Part shown: one piece after another, positions 24,593 to 37,609 of the stretch | How the letters are laid out: each line of letters opens with the position of its first letter | How positions within the stretch are numbered: the stretch's first letter is position 1 | NCBI GenBank assembly: GCA_963675745.2 | Contig: CAXXWX010000010.1 | Location: forward strand, 64,001 to 128,000 | Direction of reading: 5' to 3' | DNA from: Phycisphaerae bacterium | GTDB taxonomy: Bacteria; Planctomycetota; Phycisphaerae; UBA1845; Fen-1342 | Length of the DNA stretch: 64,000 bases | Translations under genes and position numbers: made by a program | Notes under the pieces: model-generated | Databases searched by the model: none | What the model was told of the DNA's origin: nothing | The model's input: the letters and a program-made list of their open reading frames with translations, nothing else

Positions 24593-24619
24593 CACGAGCC
24601 CGATATCGAACAAACCGTC

Positions 24620-24689
24620 GTGTGCCACGGCTCTGTGAGCCGTGCTGTGCCACGACGGGAGAAGCACTGCCCACAGAGCAGTGGCACAC
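24620..24689. repeat. REP doublet, GTGTGCCAC family
   Basis: gtgtgccacggctctgtgagccgtg and inverted gcactgcccacagagcagtggcacac. Confidence 0.75.
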
Positions 24690-24738
24690 GTCACGCTGTG
24701 GGACCGACCTCCGGTCGGTCGCGTTCCGACAGTCATTT

Positions 24739-27000: not shown

Positions 27001-28647
27001 TTAGGAATTGCTCGCCGCCGGCGGCGCGCGGGCGGAATCGCCACGGGCGTGGCCCAGTCTGGTAGAGCGCTGCGTTCGGGACGCAGAGGTCGTAGGTTCA
27101 AATCCTATCGCCCCGATTCGACAACCCCCTGCATAGCGGCAGTAATCCGCGCATGTTTTCAGCCCGCCACGGGATTCTCCGGTCGGGAGGCGATTCCTCG
27201 CGCTACTGCCGACTCCTCCGTCCCGCAATTTGGCCCGATCCTGTCCCAGGTTCAGCGTCGGCAACGGGCCGCGCGGCGAACCATCAGCCGACGCAGCATC
27301 CTGGTTTTTGGCAGATCTCCGGCGAGACGATTCCCGCCCTGCGCCGCGACGTTCTGAGCGAGATCCTGCGCAGAGGCGCGCAACGCCTGTTGGCGCAAGC
27401 GATGGACGCCGAGGTGAGTCAGTGGATTGACGCCGCCGCCGGTTCAGGTCGACCGTTCGCCCGCCCATTCCCTCAGCCAGCACACCTTCGAGGACCCGCA
27501 GGAAATCCTCAATGTCCTTGAGGTCAATCGTCAAACTCGGATCGATACGCAGCACTTTGACATCGGGACGCCGCCCGACGATGAAGCCACGCCGTACGAG
27601 TTCGCGATGCACCCGCATCGTAAACGAGTTTTCCGCATCATCGTCCATTTCCAGCGCGACCATCAGTCCCCGCGAACGAATGTCCTTGATCCGGCTTGTG
27701 CGATCCCTGATCTTCTTCAACCCGGTCATGAGGACATGCGCAATCTCCTTGCCTCGCTCGATCAGCCGTTCTTCCGTGATGACCCGAATGACCTCCCGCA
27801 CAACGGCCGCCCCCAGCGGATCATTCTGGTGAGACTGGGCGTATTTCACCCGCTCGCCCTTCAGCCGGCGTATGACGGTGTGCGAGAGCGCCGCCACACT
27901 CACGGGGTAACCATTGCCGATGCCCTTGCCCATGGCAACGATATCCGGCGCAAACCCATAGTGCTGAAAGCCGAACCAACACCCAGTTCGGCCGACACCA
28001 GTCGTCACCTCGTTTACTAGAACAAGCCCATCGCTTTCCTTGACAACACGAACGATGTTCCGAATCAGCTTCTCCGACGGAAAACGAACCAAACCGGATG
28101 AACTGCCGGGTTCGAGAAGAAAACCCCCGATCTTGTCAAATGGGATCGTCGCCCATCTGTCGCAGTGCCCGCCGCAGTCACCGGCGTGCGGGCACGCGGC
28201 GCATGCCTGCCAGTCGAAACGGAACCACTCGTCGTCCTCGCCCTTACTCGCAGAACCGTAGGCCCCGAAGTAGGAATCCGTCATCGTCATCAGCAATGGT
28301 CGATAAATGACCATCTGCGCGACCCGCACGCCATACTCGACGGCTTCGCTGCCCGAACACAGGAAGACACATTTGCCGTCCTCGAATCCGACCAGGGACA
28401 GAATCTCCCGCGCTGCCTGCTCCACCACGCCGCTCGAGTAACAGAAGCCCGTGTGACCGATCCGCGCGGCCTGTTCCGCAATCGCGCGAAGCACGTTTGG
28501 ATTCCCTTGACCGATCGGCGTACACCACACGCCCGATTCAAGATCGACGTACCGCTTGCCTTGGGCATCATAGAGAGAGCAGTTTTCTGCACGGACCAAG
28601 TCCGTCAGAAGCAACTCGTGCCCAGGATACCATACGATGTGCGTCAT
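27001..28647 (-). CDS. Class-III PLP aminotransferase (ArgD-like); native stop apparently lost near 27460
   Basis: GKRYVD, SGSEAVE, NEVTTGVGRTG, PDIVAMGKGIGNG; GGAGG RBS. Confidence 0.85.
   Translation of the reverse strand: MTHIVWYPGHELLLTDLVRAENCSLYDAQGKRYVDLESGVWCTPIGQGNPNVLRAIAEQAARIGHTGFCYSSGVVEQAAREILSLVGFEDGKCVFLCSGSEAVEYGVRVAQMVIYRPLLMTMTDSYFGAYGSASKGEDDEWFRFDWQACAACPHAGDCGGHCDRWATIPFDKIGGFLLEPGSSSGLVRFPSEKLIRNIVRVVKESDGLVLVNEVTTGVGRTGCWFGFQHYGFAPDIVAMGKGIGNGYPVSVAALSHTVIRRLKGERVKYAQSHQNDPLGAAVVREVIRVITEERLIERGKEIAHVLMTGLKKIRDRTSRIKDIRSRGLMVALEMDDDAENSFTMRVHRELVRRGFIVGRRPDVKVLRIDPSLTIDLKDIEDFLRVLEGVLAEGMGGRTVDLNRRRRQSTDSPRRPSLAPTGVARLCAGSRSERRGAGRESSRRRSAKNQDAASADGSPRGPLPTLNLGQDRAKLRDGGVGSSARNRLPTGESRGGLKTCADYCRYAGGCRIGAIGFEPTTSASRTQRSTRLGHARGDSARAPPAASNS
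27044..27116 (+). tRNA. tRNA-Pro(CGG)
   Basis: Anticodon arm ctgcg-ttCGGga-cgcag, T-loop ggttcaaatcc, 3' cgccccga. The 5' strand cgggcg lacks one G; CCA is not encoded. Confidence 0.92.
27348..27434 (+). mobile_element. IS256-family transposase N-terminal remnant
   Basis: DVLSEILRRGAQRLLAQAMDAEVSQWID. Confidence 0.7.
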
Positions 28648-29568
28648 CCGTTCCTCCATGACGGTTCGGGAGCGCGGCGTTAGTGCTGCCATCACGGGTT
28701 ATGTGCCCGAGTTGGCGGCATCTCGGGATACAGCCGAACGTTCCGGCGTCGTTCAGTTCTTTATGAAGGGGATCGCCGTCGCGGATTGCCCAACTCCATT
28801 CACCGGAGCAAGTTACCCGACACAAAGCAGGGTATCGTGCTTCGCGTTCCACATCAAGCACGTTCTCCGTTGGCGTGCGTGAGCAGGCGCCGGGCCTCGG
28901 GGCAAGTTTCGTCTTGCATGGGGGCGTTGGAGGCGGCCGACATCGTCAAGAAGAACATGCCACGCGGACCGAGGTTCGGTTCCTGACGACGCGACGGAGC
29001 AGCGTGGGATTTTCTGCTCGTACGCTGTAGGCCGGCGCTGCTGGCAACGTATCCGCAAGCAACGACTCGATCGGGCTCGGTGAACTCACCGGGCCCCTCT
29101 ATGTCCCCATGCGCGGGACGTGTGCCCAACTCGACTTGGGCGTCGCCCATTTGGAGGATCTGAAACGCGCCTCGGTCTTGCACCGCTATCCGCATAGAAG
29201 GTCGAGCGATCGGCTGCTGCGGATCTGGATGACGTTGCTACGCGGAGGAATCGAGAATGCACTCTCTTGATGACGCGTTCTTCTCAACCGATCGCGCACC
29301 CCGTTTGCTCGTCATGCCGCACTTTGGTGGGGGGCTTGACGTTGGACCGCGATTGGCGGGTTCCCACCGACCAACGATGGCGCTCAATCACTGGCACAGG
29401 TACTCCAGAACAACGCCTGGGGGCAAAAGAGGGAGGGGCTTGAGGTGCGACTTTGCGATCAGGATGAGCAGCTGCTTGCGACCTTGTCGGTCGACGGCGG
29501 GCGATGGACACGTGAGGATCCCTGCGGCGGGATGCCTCCTGTCGGTCGCGGCACACGCTAACTCACTG

Positions 29569-29656
29569 TCATGCAGCAAGTAATGCCTCGACGACTCGCG
29601 GCGATAGGTGACTCGCCGCCTTCGCAAAAAGTTCTAACCGTGTCCAGTCACTTCGA
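29569..29656 (-). repeat. att-like segment copy 1, encoding RSDWTRLELFAKAASHLSPRVVEALLAA*
   Basis: Gap-free homolog of 34969-35056; the last 33 bp match 31/33. Confidence 0.85.
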
Positions 29657-29660
29657 GTTC

Positions 29661-29867
29661 TTAAGTCCTTTTTGGGGAACAGCTTACAGAAGCCTCGCCT
29701 GGGGCCGAATGAGCGGAAACGCCCCCATACGCAAGTCGTACGCAAGTCGCTGCGCCGGAGCCTCCCAGAATCGCCTCGTATCTCGACGCCGCCGCGCGGT
29801 CGTTTGCGTCGGCGGACTGGAGATAGAACTCACGTGTGGTCGTGATGGACGCGTGGCGACCACCCAC
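29661..29867 (-). pseudogene. Tyrosine integrase C-terminal remnant
   Basis: HASITTTREFYLQ resembles the His/Tyr catalytic box; perfect tandem tacgcaagtcg x2 at 29728-29749 resembles an arm site. Confidence 0.65.
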
Positions 29868-29875
29868 GACTCATC

Positions 29876-30178
29876 GTGGTCGTAGAGATGTCGCCGATCG
29901 TCCCCGAGGACCGTCGTCGCGAGTTCGCCGAAGCTGTCGTGCGTGCCAACTACACGTTGATGTTGGGCCGGTTTGATCTGGACCTGCGCGACGGGGAGAT
30001 GGAGTTCCACAACTGCATGCCCGTGGCCGGCGGTGAGATCACAACTGAGCAGTTTGGAGACTTGCTGTACAGCTCGATCGTGACCGCGGATCGTTACGCC
30101 CGGGCGTTCAATCGCCTACTGTACGGCGATGACCTGTCGCCGGCGGAAGTGATCGCCGAGGCGGGAATGGCCGCATGA
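29876..30178 (+). pseudogene. YbjN-like protein, 5'-truncated
   Basis: VPEDRR..FAE..VRANY....G.F.LD.RDGE pattern. Confidence 0.65.
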
Positions 30179-30301
30179 CTCAGCGCGGCATCCGTGTGAC
30201 CGAGCCGTCGGACGAGTTCGAATCCCTCGGACTGCAGCGAGTCCGCGACCTGGGAGAAGAGACCCCCGCAGTTTACTGAAAGGGCCGACGGGGAGGGTGT
30301 T

Positions 30302-31348
30302 ATGAACCGCACGATTGTCATCGGTGACATTCGCGCATGTCACGACGAGCTTCAGGATCTCCTGCAGCGTGTCGGCCCGACAGTGGACGACCGCATCATT
30401 GCGATTGGTGACGTGGTCGACCGTGGACCGGACAATCGCGGTGTGCTCGAGTTCATTCGCGATATGCCCAATGCAATATCGCTGATGGGTAGTCACGAGC
30501 GCAAGCATCTACGGTCCGCGCGGGGCGAAGTCGAGCCCGCCATCGCGCAGCGGATCACCCGGCACGAACTCGGCGACGCCTACCAGGAGTGGCTGGCGCT
30601 CATGGCGACATTCCCTGTCCACATTGAGCTCGCTGAAGCGCTGCTCGTCCATGGCTTCTTCGAGCCCGGTCTACCGCTGAAACTGCAGCGCGAAAACGTG
30701 CTGGTGGGTACAATGTCCGGCGAGGGACATCTGCGCCGCACGTACGCACAGCCTTGGTACGAGCTGTACGACGGGGATCGACCGCTCGTGGTCGGACATC
30801 ATGACTATCTTCGCACCGGCGAGCCGCTGATCCACAACGATCGCGTGTTCTGCATCGACACCGGAGCTTGTCGCGGCGGTCGCTTGACTGCGCTCGTGCT
30901 GCCGGAGTTCCGCATCGTGCAGGTGAATGCCCGGCGTGACCATTGGGCGCGCGTGAAAGGCGACCACGTCGTCGCGCAGCGCGCTGTTGCGTCGCACAAC
31001 AAAGGGAGGTATCGGCATGGCACAGCAACTACACGAGCTCCTACCGGGACTGGAAGTCGTCGCCACGGAGTCGGTTGGACCACTGCAGGTCTTCGGCCTG
31101 CGCGGGCGGCCAGCGTCGCGATTGAATTACTTGACGCTGGACGAGGCACTGACCACCAAGCACTTCCGCGTGGACGAAATCAGCGAATCCGGCAGCGTGC
31201 CGCAGCTCAAGCTGCAGAACGACGTGGATCAACGGGTGTTCGTTATGGCCGGCGAGCAACTCATTGGCGCCAAGCAGAATCGCGTCCTGAATGCGAGCCT
31301 GCTGGTCGAACGCAAGACGCAGATGCTGGCGCCGGTGAGCTGCGTTGA
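30302..31348 (+). CDS. PPP-family metallophosphoesterase with degenerate motifs; reads through into the next gene
   Basis: IGDIRAC, GDVVDRG, MGSHE, VHG, VVGH, IDTGAC.GG.LTA; homology ends near 30960. Confidence 0.8.
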   Translation: MNRTIVIGDIRACHDELQDLLQRVGPTVDDRIIAIGDVVDRGPDNRGVLEFIRDMPNAISLMGSHERKHLRSARGEVEPAIAQRITRHELGDAYQEWLALMATFPVHIELAEALLVHGFFEPGLPLKLQRENVLVGTMSGEGHLRRTYAQPWYELYDGDRPLVVGHHDYLRTGEPLIHNDRVFCIDTGACRGGRLTALVLPEFRIVQVNARRDHWARVKGDHVVAQRAVASHNKGRYRHGTATTRAPTGTGSRRHGVGWTTAGLRPARAASVAIELLDAGRGTDHQALPRGRNQRIRQRAAAQAAERRGSTGVRYGRRATHWRQAESRPECEPAGRTQDADAGAGELR

Positions 31349-32657
31349 GCGGGGCCGCTGGTCGTATCGCAGCCGCTCGTTTGGCTCGAAGGGCTCGTCC
31401 TCGCATGGCTATCTGCGGCGGAAGATGTCCAAGGACAGCTACGAGGGCTATCGCAAACACTCGTACCCCAGGAGCAAGCAAGGCGAGGTCTGGGCTGAGG
31501 TGGATCGCAAGATGTTCGCGATGCAGAGTGCGTCCCCTTCGGACGCGCTCGATCAGGTCTATGACGACTATGCCGGCCAGCTTGATGACCTGCTCAGCCA
31601 AGTCAACGTGCCGGACGACTGCCGCGGCGTGGTGTTCGCGTTCGCGGGACAGATCGCCGGCGCAGACGTGTTCGACCAGCCGGCGACCCTCAGCAAGCTG
31701 CTGCCGAAGCTGCTGCGCGCCTACGCCCTGGACGCGCTCGAGGCGAACTCGGACCAGCAGGTTGAAGCCGATGTCGTGACCGCCTGGCTGGGCCAGGCGC
31801 GGGATGCGCAACTCGAACGCTTCGACTCGCCGGGACTCGGCCACGACTACCGGCTGGAGACGCCGCAGCTGGTCGGGGCGGCCCTGGCCTTCGAGAACCA
31901 GGCCCTGCACATCGAGCTGTTCCCGAGTGACGATGGGCCCGGCCGAGGGAGTCGCCGGCCGCAGCCGTCGCCCGCTCCTGCGCCCCGCGCATCGACGCCG
32001 GAAGGCAGCGGTTCCGGCGCCGTAGCGCTCAGTGCAGCCATCAACGAGGCGCACGTGGTGGCGTTCGCGACCTCCGAAGCCACGTTGGCTGCGTTGAGCG
32101 AAGCGGTCCGCGCTTTAAGGCCCGGCATGCGCGCCGGGGCCGGACTGCAGGTGGCGCGGAGCGGTTTGCTGATTCGCGTGGACCGCAGTGAGCACGACCG
32201 CTTCGACGCGACAAACCCGGCGCTGAACCATGCCGCGGAGGCGGCGCTAGTGTACGCCGCGACGCAACGCGCACCCCAGGCCCGGCATCGGCTCGTGGTG
32301 ACGGGCTGCGGCTTGGCGGACAATTGGTTCTCGCACTGGCACGCTGAGGCACGCACGACAGTCGTATCGCTCTTCGATTGGCACCGTGTGGCCGCCGTAC
32401 CGCCCGCCGCCTTCGTCGCGTGCGAACTGCTTGTGCATGGCCTGCAGGCCGCCTCGGACGACTATGACCCTGAGCGGCTGTTCCACCGGTCGACGCGCAA
32501 TTGTCTGTTTGACTTCTGCGCGAACAAGCCGGACATCGAGGCAAAGCTGACGACCGGGCGCATGTGTGACGAGTGCCGGCGCGCGCTCCGGCAACACGAG
32601 GTGGTGGAGCGAACATTGATGCAAGTGCTGCCCATCATCGCTCGTTTGTGCCAGTAG
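31017..32657 (+). CDS. ARPP-1 (DUF6569-like) protein fused to a Cys/His-rich C-terminal domain
   Basis: GGGAGGT RBS; LTLDEAL, GSVPQL, GEQLIGAKQNRVLN, PVSCVERGRW, QGEVW. Confidence 0.8.
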   Translation: MAQQLHELLPGLEVVATESVGPLQVFGLRGRPASRLNYLTLDEALTTKHFRVDEISESGSVPQLKLQNDVDQRVFVMAGEQLIGAKQNRVLNASLLVERKTQMLAPVSCVERGRWSYRSRSFGSKGSSSHGYLRRKMSKDSYEGYRKHSYPRSKQGEVWAEVDRKMFAMQSASPSDALDQVYDDYAGQLDDLLSQVNVPDDCRGVVFAFAGQIAGADVFDQPATLSKLLPKLLRAYALDALEANSDQQVEADVVTAWLGQARDAQLERFDSPGLGHDYRLETPQLVGAALAFENQALHIELFPSDDGPGRGSRRPQPSPAPAPRASTPEGSGSGAVALSAAINEAHVVAFATSEATLAALSEAVRALRPGMRAGAGLQVARSGLLIRVDRSEHDRFDATNPALNHAAEAALVYAATQRAPQARHRLVVTGCGLADNWFSHWHAEARTTVVSLFDWHRVAAVPPAAFVACELLVHGLQAASDDYDPERLFHRSTRNCLFDFCANKPDIEAKLTTGRMCDECRRALRQHEVVERTLMQVLPIIARLCQ

Positions 32658-33139
32658 AGGGGCGTCGGAATGATCGGCCAACGCGTGGCGGAGTATGGCT
32701 GCGGAGGAAGGTGACGTGGGAAAGCCGAAACGCCAGCTCCGCCGCGCGTTGGGTCTGGACGACTACGGCGAGCTCTGGCTGCCCAGGAAGCGCAGCAGTG
32801 CCATCCTCGCCGGCATTGAGCACCATCGCGAACGCGGCTGCTGGTTCGACTTCCGGCACGGGCGAGACACCAACAACGCGACGCTTCTCAAAAACCGCCG
32901 CTCGTGAGAGCACCATCGCCGGCAGCAGTGGCGAATTCGGTGAGCCAAAGGTTGTTTAGGCGGTCCCGCCTGGGGTCGCTGATGTTTGCCACACGACCGG
33001 ATTGGAGAATCAGCGGCATCCTCGACCTGGACACGTACAAGATTGGCAAGGGTCCGGCGGACCCCGTCTTCAATCTGGCGGCGTCTTGCCGCACGATGCC
33101 TCCGCGAGAGGAGGCCTGGCGCCTGGGCAAGCTTGCAGT

Positions 33140-33323
33140 GCGAGGTTTGCGGAAGGAAGCGGTGTGGCGGCGCAGCCTGAGTCGGCAGGCCGAGAGCGGA
33201 CAGTCAGTCTCAGGCTGGTGTCGCGAGCGCGGAGTCGCGGAGACGGCGTTCCAATGGTGGCGCAAGGAACTGGTTCGGCGTGTCGCTGAGATCCGGGCGT
33301 CACTGAAGAGAATGGTGAGCTGA
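33140..33323 (+). mobile_element. IS66 TnpA-like HTH remnant
   Basis: W......AESGQSVSGWCRERGV....FQWWRKEL. Confidence 0.65.
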
Positions 33324-33338
33324 GTGAGAGGGTACGAC

Positions 33339-33476
33339 ATGCGTCTGATCTTGGCGGCTCAAGACGCCGATATGCGGGCTGCCTGGGCCGAGCACTTCGC
33401 TGTAGAGGTGGACGTCACGATCAGAGACACGGATGTTGGTGACGTCGCTTGCGATGCAGTTGTAATTCCGCTTAAC
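33339..33476 (+). pseudogene. Macro-domain protein, N-terminal fragment
   Basis: MRLILAAQD...AAWAEHF....DVTI.......ACDAVVIPLN, then similarity stops. Confidence 0.55.
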
Positions 33477-33497
33477 GGTCCGGATCCGCGTGCCGAC

Positions 33498-33802
33498 GCG
33501 ATGAACTCGCTTCCGAAGGCCCCGCTGGATACCTGCTTGTTGTCGGGGACCTGTACATTGGCGGTGATGTTCGATGCCCGGTGTTCATGCGCGATGCAGA
33601 AATCCCACCGGTCGTTGCGGCAGTTCAGATACATCCGGACGGGTTATACCTCACAAAAGCCAGGACTGATGTACGATTACGAGTTGATGACAGAGACATT
33701 GATTCGGGACAATCGGAACGAATCGAGCTTCCCGTGCAGTTGTCGTGTGGCCGTTACGCGTGCACGATGCGTGTTGCGAGCATCAAGGACTTCACGGAGT
33801 GA
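33498..33802 (+). pseudogene. FHA-like beta-domain, C-terminal fragment
   Basis: YLLVVGDLYIGG...LRVDDRDI...LSCGRY..., directly upstream of the kinase fragment. Confidence 0.35.
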
Positions 33803-33820
33803 CATGAAGGCGGCGATCTG

Positions 33821-34048
33821 ATGACTGACGAACGTGCTGAACTTCCTTCGGACCCGCGGACCGATCAGCCATCGCATCTGACTTCGGAAGGCTGTAACCG
33901 GTGGCAGAGCATCGGTGACGAGAAGACGCTTCCGGACGAAGGGCATCTTGACAGCGATCGCCTGACGCTGATCAAGCAGCTTGGTGAAGGCGGGATGGCT
34001 GTAGTCTGGCTGCTGCAACGAGACGAGGGATCGATCGCAAGGATGTGA
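33821..34048 (+). pseudogene. Ser/Thr kinase N-terminal fragment
   Basis: Gly-rich loop LIKQLGEGGMAVVWL followed by an early stop. Confidence 0.7.
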
Positions 34049-34066
34049 CGGCGCTGAGAGCGAATC

Positions 34067-34440
34067 ATGAAGAAGCACGCACTGCTTGTCGGAGTTGAGG
34101 AATACCGGGATTCGATGATCTCGCGGCTGCAGTTTGCGCGAGCGGATGCGCCACGCTTGCCGAGCGGCTCGAGACCCGTTGCGGGTTCGACCAGGTTCGG
34201 GTGCTGGCCGACACGAACGGTGAGAACGAGCCGGCATTAATCAACATCGTGGCCGCTTTGCGTGACACGGCCGGAGAGCTGCGGAGCGATGACCTGTTCC
34301 TGTTCTTTTTCGCCGGCCATGGCGTGGAAAAGGAGGGCCACGGCTACCTGATGGCGCGCGACAGTCTGCAGGCCTTCCCCGAGCACGGCAGCCTGTCACT
34401 GGAGCTTTTGCGCAAGACATTTGGACAGTTCGGCGCGGGT
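34067..34440 (+). pseudogene. Caspase-like (C14) fragment, frameshifted and truncated
   Basis: MKKHALLVGVEEY...LQFARADA...LFLFFFAGHG; no catalytic Cys (DAC) region. Confidence 0.8.
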
Positions 34441-34739
34441 AAGCCGTACGGAGAGAAATGCCAGTAATTCGGGCAGCAGTTGTTGCGTTCCTGGCTGAGT
34501 CCGACGGCGCTCTTGTGCTCGCCCAGCACGAGCGTCTCTTTTCCTTTCCGATGCGCGGTCAGCGGATCTGTGCAACCAAAATCGACCCGATTATGCGGGC
34601 GGTCTTCTTGCTCCCAAACCCGCGCCTCAGGGTAAATATGGCAAATGCGCTCAACGATGCTCCGACGCTGCGGATTGGACCGGCTTCCCTTCGTCAGAAC
34701 GATCCGCTTTCGGGAAATAATGGGGGGACTTCGGGGCAT
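34441..34739 (-). pseudogene. Spore-photoproduct-lyase-like radical SAM N-terminal fragment
   Basis: ...GKETLVLG...CPNYWHFSPYG, cut just before the expected CxxxCxxC. Confidence 0.55.
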
Positions 34740-34968
34740 GTAGTGTTCGGTGTACGCAAAGAGCCCGCCCATACTCTCTTCCGCAGCCCTCATTCGCATG
34801 CCGCGTCTCCCTGGCGAGTGGAACTGGTGAACCCTAACACGCGGCTAACAAGCGGTCAATCATGTCGAGAAGGACCAGTGGCTTTCTTCACCCGCCATCG
34901 GATTCGAGGTGCCGCCATAGCATTCGGGATTCTCCCGGCAACTGGGCCGAATGCTACGTAACATCCTG

Positions 34969-35056
34969 TTATGCCGCCAGTAACGCCTCGGCGACGGACT
35001 GCGGCAGGCGAACGGCGCCCGCGGCAAAAAGTCCTAACCGTGTCCGGTCACTTCGA
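34969..35056 (-). repeat. att-like segment copy 2, encoding RSDRTRLGLFAAGAVRLPQSVAEALLAA*
   Basis: Homologous to 29569-29656 at an offset of exactly 5400 bp; marks the right edge of the island. Confidence 0.85.
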
Positions 35057-35285
35057 TTGATCGCAAGTCTCGCCGAGCGCACGGATTGGCGAACCTGCCC
35101 GACGCCGGGCCGTGCGGCACGATGCCTGACTCCGCGCGGACCATAATCCACGCCAGGTACACTGGCGCGGCACATGGCGAAAAACCGCAATTCCTGAACT
35201 ACCGCACACACGCCGTCCCGGCATGAACCCGTCGATGGCGGCGTGCGCGACTTGGCGTTTCATTACAACGGCGATGCGGCGTCTG

Positions 35286-35309
35286 ACTGCTCTGTGAGCC
35301 GTGGCACAC
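35286..35309. repeat. REP-like repeat, GTGTGCCAC family
   Basis: actgctctgtgagccgtggcacac. Confidence 0.6.
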
Positions 35310-35340
35310 AGCGAGGCAACGCACCACAAGCGATGGTAGG

Positions 35341-36264
35341 CTAGCTCCGTACCCGCCGACACAGCGCTTCGGCCAGGCGCTCCGCGGCGTTTGGACCATG
35401 GCGGAAGAACAGCGACGGCTCCACCAGCTCCAGCTCGCTGAGCCGCAGCTCGCCGTGGGCGTCGCGCAGGAAATCGACGCGCGCGTATAGCAGCTTGTCG
35501 GCGTCGTGAGGCGCAGGTGTCTGTCTATCCGGTAGCCGGCCGGCCATGGCTTCGGGCACCAGGCCGACGATTCGCCGGGCCGCGTCGAGCCCGTCGCGTG
35601 CCATCACGGCGGGCTCATCGCTCGCTCCAAAATCGTCCTGAACACGGTAATCGCCGGGCACGGGAATCTTGCGGACGGTGTGCGTGATCTCGCCGTCGAT
35701 GAAGATAACCGACAGCTCGCCAGCCGTTTCGACGCTTTCCAGGTATGGCTGGATCATCATGTCTTCATGCGCGAGCAGTCGCTTAAGGTGCGACTCGGCG
35801 GTGGCGAGGCCGGCCGGCGTGGCGTCAAATCGCAGTGTTTCGCGTGCTGTTGCGCCGATCAGCGGTTTGAGAAACGCCCGGCGCCAGCCATGCTCGGCCA
35901 ACACGGTCTCCAGATCGACCGTCGCGCCGCGCGCGAGCCAGACGGTTGGCGTCAGCGGCGCGCCCAGTGCCTCCAGATCATGCAAGTAGCTCTTGTGTGA
36001 ATTCCACCGGACGACGTCGGCCGCGTTGAACAGCCGCGTCAAGCCGCCGACGCGTGCGGCCCAGTCCGCAAACGCGTCGCGCTTCTCCTGATAGTCCCAG
36101 GTTGTGCGAATCAGGCACGCGTCAAACGCCGTCCAGTCCGCGCGCGGGTCATCCCACACGAGTTGGGCGTACTCCACGCCGCGCCGAGCCAGCGCGGCGT
36201 GCAGCGGCCGATCATCGACCTCCCAGTCGGGCAGGTTCGAGCAGGTTGCCAGCGCGATTCGCAT
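35341..36264 (-). CDS. ATP-grasp (RimK/glutathione synthetase-like) protein
   Basis: IRTTWDY, WNSHKSYL, MIQPYL, YARVD, ELELVEPSLF. Confidence 0.85.
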   Translation of the reverse strand: MRIALATCSNLPDWEVDDRPLHAALARRGVEYAQLVWDDPRADWTAFDACLIRTTWDYQEKRDAFADWAARVGGLTRLFNAADVVRWNSHKSYLHDLEALGAPLTPTVWLARGATVDLETVLAEHGWRRAFLKPLIGATARETLRFDATPAGLATAESHLKRLLAHEDMMIQPYLESVETAGELSVIFIDGEITHTVRKIPVPGDYRVQDDFGASDEPAVMARDGLDAARRIVGLVPEAMAGRLPDRQTPAPHDADKLLYARVDFLRDAHGELRLSELELVEPSLFFRHGPNAAERLAEALCRRVRS

Positions 36265-36346
36265 GGCCAAAAGCCTGATCGCGGGAGCACGCGGTGTCAA
36301 TCCGATCTGGCGTGACGCTGCCGCGCCGACACGCTAGCGCAGTCGA

Positions 36347-37609
36347 TCAATCCAGCGGGGCGATCCAGAGGTTGCGGAAGCGAACGCGGTTGCCGTGGTC
36401 CTGGAGCAGCAGCGGGGCGTCGTTTGGGGCTTCGGGCAGCCCGAAGCCGGTCTGCTTGGGGATTTCAACGTTGCCGTGGATGCGCGTCCCGTTGTGGTAG
36501 ACCGTGATGTGTGCGTTGGCGATTTTCGTGCCTTTCGCATCCCAGCGCGGCGCGCGGAACTCGATGTCATATGTCTGCCACTGACCGGCGGGGCGGGCCA
36601 TGTTGAAATCGGCGGCCTTCACCTTGTAAATCGCGCCGCAGATGTCATCAGCCGGTTCCTGGCCGCACGAATTCAGGATCTGCACCTCGTAGCGTCCCTG
36701 AACGTACACGCCACTGTTCCCGTTAGCCTGCCCCTGCTTCTGGTTGTCGTCTACGCAGAACTCGATGTGCAGCCGGCAATCGCCGAACGGCTTTCGTGTC
36801 ACGATGTTGCCGGTGCCGGGCTCGACCTCAAGCGCCCCGTCGGCGAATCTCCATTGGACGCGCGAGCCGGGCTTGCCCGCGTGTTCCCACTTGGAGAGGT
36901 CGCCGCCGGCGTCGAGCAGCGTCACAGCGCCGGTGGACGGCCGGCACAACGGATCGCCGAGGTCCTTGATGCGCAGCTTGCGCCAGCGCACCTCCATCGG
37001 CTCGGCTTCGTTCGTGCCGTGTACCTGGAGGCCGACAAAGCCGCTACGAGTCAGATCGTCGCGCAGGTCCGCCGCCGCCACGCCGTTCAGCCACGTGCGG
37101 ATGCGATCGCCGTGGGCTTCGACGCGCACGTGGTTCCATTGGTTCTGGCGCAACGCCCGGCGTGCCGACTCGTTATCTTTCAGGTCACACAGCCAGCCGC
37201 GCCGGCCCTCGTCATAAATGCCGGCCGTCCAGGCACGCTCGGACGGATCGATCTCAATCTGATAGCCGTGTACCAGGCCGTTCTTGTATCCCGCGACGCT
37301 GTTGCTGCGAATCTGCACGCCCGAATTCAGCTTCGGGTCCACCTTGAATTCGTATTCGAGCGTGAAGTCGGCATAGTCGCGCTCGGTGCAGAGAAACGAG
37401 TTGGGCGTGTTCGGGACCGAACGGCCGACGATCTGCCCGTCCTCGACGGCGTATTCCGCCTTGCCGCCGCGCTGTACCCAGCCGTCAAGCGTCTTTCCGT
37501 CGAACAGCTCCCGCCACCCCGGCTCTCCCCGCTCGTCGGCGAGTGTCGGCACGTGTGAAAGAAGCAGAGTACAGGTGATGCACGCGAAAGCGAGGGCTGC
37601 TCTGAACAT
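36347..37609 (-). CDS. Secreted protein with two DUF1080 (3-keto-glycoside hydrolase-like) domains
   Basis: LFDGKTLDGW...NSGVQIR...GLQVH and a second NSGVY...LQDHG..V.FRN. Confidence 0.9.
   Translation of the reverse strand: MFRAALAFACITCTLLLSHVPTLADERGEPGWRELFDGKTLDGWVQRGGKAEYAVEDGQIVGRSVPNTPNSFLCTERDYADFTLEYEFKVDPKLNSGVQIRSNSVAGYKNGLVHGYQIEIDPSERAWTAGIYDEGRRGWLCDLKDNESARRALRQNQWNHVRVEAHGDRIRTWLNGVAAADLRDDLTRSGFVGLQVHGTNEAEPMEVRWRKLRIKDLGDPLCRPSTGAVTLLDAGGDLSKWEHAGKPGSRVQWRFADGALEVEPGTGNIVTRKPFGDCRLHIEFCVDDNQKQGQANGNSGVYVQGRYEVQILNSCGQEPADDICGAIYKVKAADFNMARPAGQWQTYDIEFRAPRWDAKGTKIANAHITVYHNGTRIHGNVEIPKQTGFGLPEAPNDAPLLLQDHGNRVRFRNLWIAPLD

Follow-up and report, generated by a model that had tools for sequence, protein, structure and literature searches.

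What do two short tail-coding repeats beside a tRNA gene record, and does the tail that they encode mark a recombinase for proteolysis? We addressed this question for a 64,000-nt stretch of a Phycisphaerae bacterium genome (assembly GCA_963675745.2, contig CAXXWX010000010.1, positions 64,001 to 128,000), which in its full length is referred to as the window and lies on contig C10 of genome G000 in the analysis. An original prediction had interpreted the repeats as paired att-like junctions of one island, encoding an ssrA-like degron that is joined to a neighbouring integrase only in the excised state. Here, we assign the tails to a family of large serine recombinases (LSRs) that, to judge from the sequences compared, very probably exchange their C-terminus in an integration-dependent manner. 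The tail-swap system is more solid than the original prediction could know, and the local model of that prediction is wrong.

Two tail copies downstream of a tRNA-Pro gene

The target gene, the tail copies and their att arms are located as follows.

27043..27116, plus strand: tRNA-Pro(CGG), the target; Rfam match; antisense reads RGDRI and stop; crossover probably at C71-G72-A73
29569..29655, minus strand: tail copy 1 (28 codons, TGA stop), an orphan C-terminal extension from an LSR, ending LLAA
29627..29656, minus strand: attP-derived (P') arm of copy 1, with a GAAC motif 5 bp farther out than in the tRNA half-site
34969..35055, minus strand: tail copy 2, 28 codons plus TAA, ending LLAA
35027..35056, minus strand: attP-derived (P') arm of copy 2, arm match

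The tRNA was the sole match in an Rfam scan. Copies 1 and 2 lie 2.5 and 7.9 kb downstream of it, antisense to the tRNA. The gap-free homology between 29569-29656 and 34969-35056, 5400 bp apart, was reproduced (66 of 88 positions identical), as were the 28-aa tails on the minus strand of both repeats, the register between the tRNA-Pro antisense RGDRI and RSD(W/R), and the six synonymous changes plus TGA/TAA, which are accompanied by 10 non-synonymous codon differences. Of the two tails, which had been described as start-less, copy 2 is covered by an 80-aa GTG frame, probably by chance.

The tail is the C-terminal extension of a large serine recombinase

The partner of the tail can be read from another copy in the same genome (C18:25365), where an LSR-like C-terminus lies upstream of the arm and in frame with it. 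A search with this recombinase end gave matches in 29 of 72 genomes of the family. Among 30 family loci examined, 25 adjoin tRNA-Pro and end RGD[RWK]I and stop or a few codons later, 3 continue into a tail, 1 terminates at a tmRNA-like end and 1 is broken by the contig end; in the phylum search 30 loci were distributed over tRNA-Pro (20), tRNA-His (4), tRNA-Lys (2) and sites without a tRNA call (4). The full-length enzymes of the relatives contain Resolvase, Recombinase and Zn-ribbon domains, identifying them as LSRs. No intact LSR of this family was found in the window or in the genome (91% complete), where C18 has just a recombinase end of 54 aa and the LSR on C16 is unrelated, so that the window contains relics.

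Eight intact elements of 35-78 kb carry the recombinase at their tRNA or tmRNA-like end and the tail upstream on the same strand. When attP was reconstructed in silico, LSR and tail joined in frame in all eight, placing attP inside the integrase gene and giving the enzyme a different C-terminus in either state. The proposal of a recombinase that is tagged when excised and ends untagged in the tRNA when integrated thus stands as a tail swap with an LSR as partner and without need of a frameshift, but not with a tyrosine integrase. A profile of recombinase end plus tail retrieved 872 proteins at E 0.001 or better, the best 150 of which comprise 91 end/tail fusions, 20 proteins ending in tRNA antisense and 39 others or unclassified. 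Both kinds of end occur within one 90%-identity cluster (P0027; 15 of 16 members listed), where nine proteins end R[GS]DWI, four have a 28-aa LLAA tail and two end otherwise. In genome G796 an older recombinase is fused to the tail of a newcomer at a tandem junction.

Two read joints were considered as traces of an excised circle and rejected. The joint 29656->27126 contains the spacer found at the C18:19628 copy and hence does not represent a circle of this element, and the 30-nt side of the joint 27118->29625 has a depth of 154 and is likely a repeat unitig. No RNA dataset was among the matches listed.

Three further observations concern the recombinase family. Two LSRs that are 99% identical (L095, L201) reside at different tRNA-Pro genes in genomes of two families (G023, G168), a case of recent transfer. 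The tail start, T-P-I-E-L-F-x-A-G, resembles the last conserved block of the recombinase, K-P-F-D-V-L-A-E-G, about 19 residues earlier (P0018-P0167), possibly as the result of an old duplication. Finally, a second recombinase-like frame upstream of an intact LSR (L320:481-1398) terminates with a TRLELF block that resembles a tail but has no att junction.

The first 29 nucleotides of the tail correspond to an attP arm

Likeness among the copies begins sharply between T and CG, the T preceding the arm in 111 of 118 distinct matches. We compared 49 tRNA half-sites with 184 tail half-sites. The best match of the first 13 nt of the tail to the tRNA half-site was at offset 0 (0.79) and that of the outer motif at offset 5 (0.69); for the outer motif, offsets 0-3, 7 and 8 gave at most 0.18. 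For LI/A118 serine integrases the outer motif is 5 bp nearer the centre in attB than in attP (PMC3783163), and this 5-bp offset is present here in the tRNA-side half only. All 44 tRNAs adjoining an LSR end have perfect acceptor stems, with six stem sequences among them, indicating that the stem is host-derived and that crossover takes place in the last bases. The crossover core is very short and comes without a duplicated tRNA fragment, as expected of an LSR element. By its alignment with the tRNA half-sites the first 29 nt of the tail are the attP arm. The modest DNA likeness to the tRNA end, which had been a caveat of the original prediction, is expected from a crossover at T-C-G in the final bases of the tRNA, the rest being recombinase half-site. 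As the first 10 codons are half-site DNA they are constrained at the DNA level and give little information on the peptide.

Each copy is the outer scar of a separate element

The genome contains nine tail copies (three on C10, one on C12, four on C18 and one on C26; two are partial), all of them 3' of and antisense to a tRNA, a tRNA fragment or tmRNA. Their neighbours are tRNA-Pro(CGG), tRNA-Pro(GGG), the 3' half of tRNA-Pro(TGG), tRNA-Ala(CGC) or tmRNA. Copies 1 and 2 are not a cognate attL/attR pair: they are two independent outer scars among nine genome copies, each of the two left by a separate element that an LSR inserted at a tRNA-Pro 3' end. No displaced tRNA-Pro 3' fragment was found in 27117-36500. 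The same non-coding arm stands before the tRNA antisense in the window and before a tail on C18, which is what one would expect of insertion precisely at the end of the tRNA with outward displacement of the earlier neighbour. In an outermost tail elsewhere (L085:505) we observed the complement of ACCA, the displaced tRNA 3' end, in front of the tail.

In an empty-site check of relatives, G040 and G041 had their tRNA-Pro(CGG) genes at contig starts with different flanks, and an ATP-grasp gene was found near tRNA-Pro(TGG) in two of nine relatives. The 29-nt arm occurs in 84 of 301 sampled genomes of the class (4 control matches; the tally takes in the unpublished genome G337) and in 45 of 401 sampled genomes of the phylum (5 control matches). 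Viral contigs gave no arm match and one LSR relative, which is broken off by the contig end.

The terminal Ala-Ala is selected as peptide in a subgroup of tails

Tails were collected with arm patterns that did not include the tail C-terminus; exact patterns were drawn from the arm type of the window, so the 28 of 178 tails that end Ala-Ala do not represent a family frequency. L198, from an unpublished genome, matches without a stop in view or with fewer than 10 codons, and two poor arm matches were left out of the counts. Of the window's arm type, 59 tails have a visible stop; 36 of them measure exactly 28 aa and 26 of the 59 end Ala-Ala, compared with none of 54 tails on other arm types in the same set. 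The Ala-Ala end is found in 28 of 52 tails of 28-29 aa and in none of the 126 others, and in 22 of 2307 long host open reading frames; its commonest form is ALLAA (15 of the 28). On other arm types Ala-Ala ends were seen in 7 of 84 tails of the profile set, a set in which the profile favours them, and in one among the 66 tails of a broader sample.

For codons 11-28 of the 36 tails pN/pS is 0.59 in frame versus 1.0-1.3 in the shifted frames. Identity in codons 27-28 is 0.84, 0.79 and 0.32 by codon position and 0.35 after the stop, and each of the four Ala codons and of the three stop codons occurs at the tail end. The last two residues and the position of the stop are the best-conserved part of the tail, next to a middle that varies freely. 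Judged by this coding signature, the terminal Ala-Ala is selected as peptide in the 28-29 aa subgroup. The earlier claim of selection on the peptide consequently holds for codons 11-28 and Ala-Ala-stop; codons 1-10 are conserved at the DNA level.

The window is a decayed tandem array

The stretch around the tail copies is lower in GC and contains cargo and gene remnants.

27117..27317, no strand: non-coding arm adjoining the tRNA, 87% identical to DNA just past the tail copy at G000:C18:19637-19827
27427..28695, minus strand: class III aminotransferase (PF00202, E 4e-62), cargo between tRNA and copy 1
29661..29867, minus strand: tyrosine integrase C-terminal remnant; its own TAA ends the frame; non-cognate neighbour
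29876..32657, plus strand: cargo with domain matches to YbjN, metallophosphoesterase and ARPP-1 domain protein
34441..34968, minus strand: gene remnant, 79% identical to DNA beside the tail copy G000:C18:23771; marks a related element
35057..35222, no strand: displaced flank, like DNA 3' of tRNA-Ala(CGC) on C26 and of a tRNA-like fragment on C17

Comparison of 27117..27317 with its C18 counterpart shows that one arm can adjoin either a tRNA end or a tail. What remains in the window is a tandem array in decay, composed of two outer scars, cargo and a foreign tyrosine integrase end and lacking a recombinase.

The assignment of 29664-29867 rests on its database homologs, two tyrosine integrases (P0016, P0017); alone, the remnant had no Pfam or NCBIfam match and no match in 71 family genomes. 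P0016 terminates, without a shift, three aligned residues ahead of the stop of the remnant itself, and neither homolog carries a tail. The remnant had been proposed to join the tail after one -1 shift, and one added base in the A5 run does produce that frame, but the homologs end untailed. For 29669-29673 no A6 was listed among the read contigs. The sole variant seen was A4, in the one contig of run X1 that covers the site (depth 6.4, five other differences in 531 nt), and the missing base gives the third frame; run X1 is possibly the source sample of the window and hence not independent. A tyrosine-integrase tRNA island bounded by the two repeats was rejected, there being neither a displaced tRNA 3' fragment nor a cognate integrase. 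The remnant forms the left end of a different island, next to which the element of copy 1 was inserted.

At 27460 the read contigs of runs X1 and X2 are one base shorter than the window, and so is one X1 contig at 29669. Indel errors in the window are a possible cause, as is its origin from another strain; the indel at 27460 might also be the reason that the aminotransferase frame continues across the tRNA. Contigs spanning tRNA to copy 1 (27114-29652) have a depth of about 14 compared with 2-7 just right of copy 1, depth not being copy number, and several contigs leave copy 1 into other DNA, a hint that the 2.5-kb tRNA-to-copy 1 unit has other neighbours in co-occurring strains.

Further features were observed at the edges of the array. 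35057-35222, G000:C26:668827-668979 and G000:C17:101689-101913 have in common a non-coding arm 3' of tails, of tRNA-Ala(CGC) and of the tRNA-like fragment, probably the end of another tRNA-targeting element. A second common arm (27117-27317; L128; L130) lies 3' of tRNA-Pro here and in G041, and its C18 version contains, about 75 nt away from the end of the tRNA, what appears to be a further half-site of att type. The segment 27330-27430, which had no database match, contains a remnant with a motif like the start of an IS256 transposase. Remnants resembling a transposase HTH and a caspase domain (32904-33323 and 34201-34467) were both under the Pfam cut-off, and a REP-like inverted repeat at 24619-24690 has a related copy at about 35288-35312, just past the island end.

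A proposed model for a recombinase that would lose its own degron

The host genome encodes ClpX and ClpP, and its tmRNA tag ends RLAA. The tails of the window resemble ssrA-type signals in their terminal Ala-Ala with Leu upstream. A screen in E. coli yielded the consensus [LFYW]-[LAR]-L-A-A for C-terminal degrons (bioRxiv 10.1101/2024.01.29.576913); ALLAA fits four of five positions of this E. coli consensus, the host here being a planctomycete. From these signatures we consider that the tail probably acts as a ClpXP degron in the 28-29 aa Ala-Ala subgroup.

In the model that we propose, a planctomycete LSR family inserts its elements at the last bases of tRNA-Pro, and also of tRNA-His, tRNA-Lys and a tmRNA-like end, with attP lying inside the recombinase gene about 28 codons before the stop. 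In the integrated state the gene reads out into the tRNA antisense and ends RGD[RWK]I and stop or a few codons later; its missing 3' end remains as a tail without a start codon at the opposite end of the element, the arrangement observed in the eight intact elements. Excision would rejoin recombinase and tail in frame, as it does in silico, and both protein forms exist in nature. Circles would form and express the long, tailed enzyme, and its degradation by ClpXP would make the circle-encoded enzyme short-lived and leave the integrated form stable. Integration might then occur in a brief, protease-gated pulse, limiting re-integration and repeated cutting at an essential gene, and protease load might gate integration, as proposed for mycobacteriophage BPs (PMC9262239).

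The tail could even be a double-acting degron, which destabilises its own excised recombinase and, grafted onto the recombinase of a resident, tags a rival for destruction, as the newcomer inserts between the tRNA and the resident element. This would account for Ala-Ala tails being kept under selection beside recombinase-less cargo (11 of 11 stretches between tRNA and tail) and for displaced recombinases with foreign tails being common and usually truncated. We regard this extension as improbable; plain decay explains the same data.

Alternative explanations

The model has to be weighed against a series of observations that speak against it. On the side of the tail swap, the other two half-sites, the LSR-side arm and the displaced flank, have no common motif, which makes the att fit partial; the P0027 cluster proteins are missing the catalytic half, and fusions found in nature may represent tandem neighbours, not circles. 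On the side of the degron, terminal Ala-Ala alone was insufficient for degradation in the E. coli screen (bioRxiv 10.1101/2024.01.29.576913), none of the eight intact elements has an Ala-Ala tail, nor do most tails of the family (just 2 of 66 in the broader, later sample end so), and no intact LSR with a cognate Ala-Ala tail was found; the absence of a full-length LSR with an Ala-Ala tail among six matches is weak evidence. None of 11 stretches of 0.9-6.3 kb between a tRNA and the nearest tail of the window's type contains a recombinase (L104 was set aside because rRNA intervenes). Ala-Ala tails are also kin, Ala-Ala occurring in 12 of 35 clusters at 70% and in 5 of 23 at 60% identity, non-Ala-Ala tails are conserved as peptide too, and AlphaFold models the tail as two helices rather than a loose end (pLDDT about 70, behind a low-confidence linker; the model holds no contact information). 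The last two points are central to a structural interpretation, in which a helix-Pro-helix tail alters the activity or direction of the enzyme, as for Mx8 Int: with the tail it would be integration-competent, without it excision-competent or weak, and Ala-Ala would be a conserved helix end. Non-Ala-Ala tails, which include those of all eight intact elements, keep ELF..G..W with identities of 0.46, 0.54 and 0.38 by codon position, and swaps of integrase C-termini have precedents (PMC4701971, PMC6070905). This interpretation leaves unexplained why the last two residues and the stop are conserved best beside a freely varying middle and why Ala-Ala occurs solely as the terminus of 28-29 aa tails; it is compatible with a degron, not exclusive of it. 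We give it an appreciable but minor chance of being the way in which the swap works, and the coding conservation of non-Ala-Ala tails and the two predicted helices make a structural role likely to be part of the story.

Two other explanations fare worse. If conservation were at the DNA level only, caused by a recombinase binding site and common ancestry, with an LAA end by chance, one would understand that third positions of codons 1-10 are conserved too (0.86, though the search patterns select for it) and that many copies are close kin. The in-frame pN/pS of codons 11-28, the use of every Ala and stop codon and the recurrence of Ala-Ala ends across different arm types make this very improbable. 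Hardly credible is the local model, in which a -1 frameshift would join the tail to the tyrosine integrase remnant and a single island would lie between copies 1 and 2. In its favour, the remnant is directed towards copy 1, and a single added base yields an in-frame fusion; against this, P0016 and P0017 are untailed with P0016 ending at about the same place as the remnant, the only variant seen is A4, 27117-36500 contains no tRNA-Pro 3' fragment, the tail is elsewhere in frame with LSR ends, and the upstream DNA varies from case to case among 120-odd arm matches. The best explanation overall, and one rather likely to be correct, is an LSR tail swap combined with a ClpXP degron that makes the circle-encoded enzyme short-lived.

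Comparison with known systems

Full-text literature searches listed no paper describing this LSR family or a recombinase that sheds its own degron. According to the 2014 Islander publication (PMC4383910), tRNA genes were not a known target of serine integrases, the term 'tRNA' never occurs in the main text of Durrant 2022, and the available text of the 2025 TIGER note, the 2026 IOD, ProBord and DEPhT does not describe an LSR-tRNA tail family, although Fig. 3J of ProBord may hold cases. The system joins three separately known things, serine integrases, tRNA targets and a recombination-toggled protease tag, the latter being known for a phage repressor but, in the literature searched, not for the recombinase itself. 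If the degron works, the enzyme would be a natural self-limiting integrase and would suggest how cleavage by such an enzyme at an essential tRNA gene is restrained. The 29-nt arm marks island ends that are missed by tRNA-fragment methods, and a recombinase targeting conserved tRNA-Pro ends is a possible tool for planctomycete genetics.

Compared with the LI/A118 rule, the offset applies here to the tRNA-side half only, the other halves lack a common motif, and the target is a tRNA. Streptococcal rumA integrative and conjugative elements have a single large serine integrase with the att site in its gene and a different C-terminus in the excised form (PMC4701971), but their target is a protein gene, the new end arises by exchange with rumA, and the passages of that source on these elements propose no degron. 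In Myxococcus phage Mx8 (and Mx9) attP also lies in the integrase gene and integration swaps the C-terminus of Int, changing its activity (PMC6070905, PMC4701971); Mx8 Int, however, is a tyrosine integrase in which 112 residues are replaced by 13, and a degron is not mentioned in the sections of these sources dealing with it. With ssrA-like ClpXP degrons the tail has in common the terminal Ala-Ala and the upstream Leu, whereas it is encoded by attP instead of being added by tmRNA and is known here from sequence alone. The closest parallels come from mycobacteriophages of the BPs type (clusters G, I, N, P), where attP lies in the repressor gene and integration at a tRNA removes an ssrA-like LAA tag (PMC4557955, PMC9262239): attP within a gene, a tRNA target, the loss of an LAA-type end, here in the 28-29 aa subgroup only, and a stop that arises at the junction. 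In BPs, however, it is the repressor gene that is split; the integrase, a tyrosine enzyme, is permanently tagged, and the tRNA is restored by a core of 35 bp. Here the split gene is that of the recombinase itself, a serine enzyme, and the common core can be as short as TCG.

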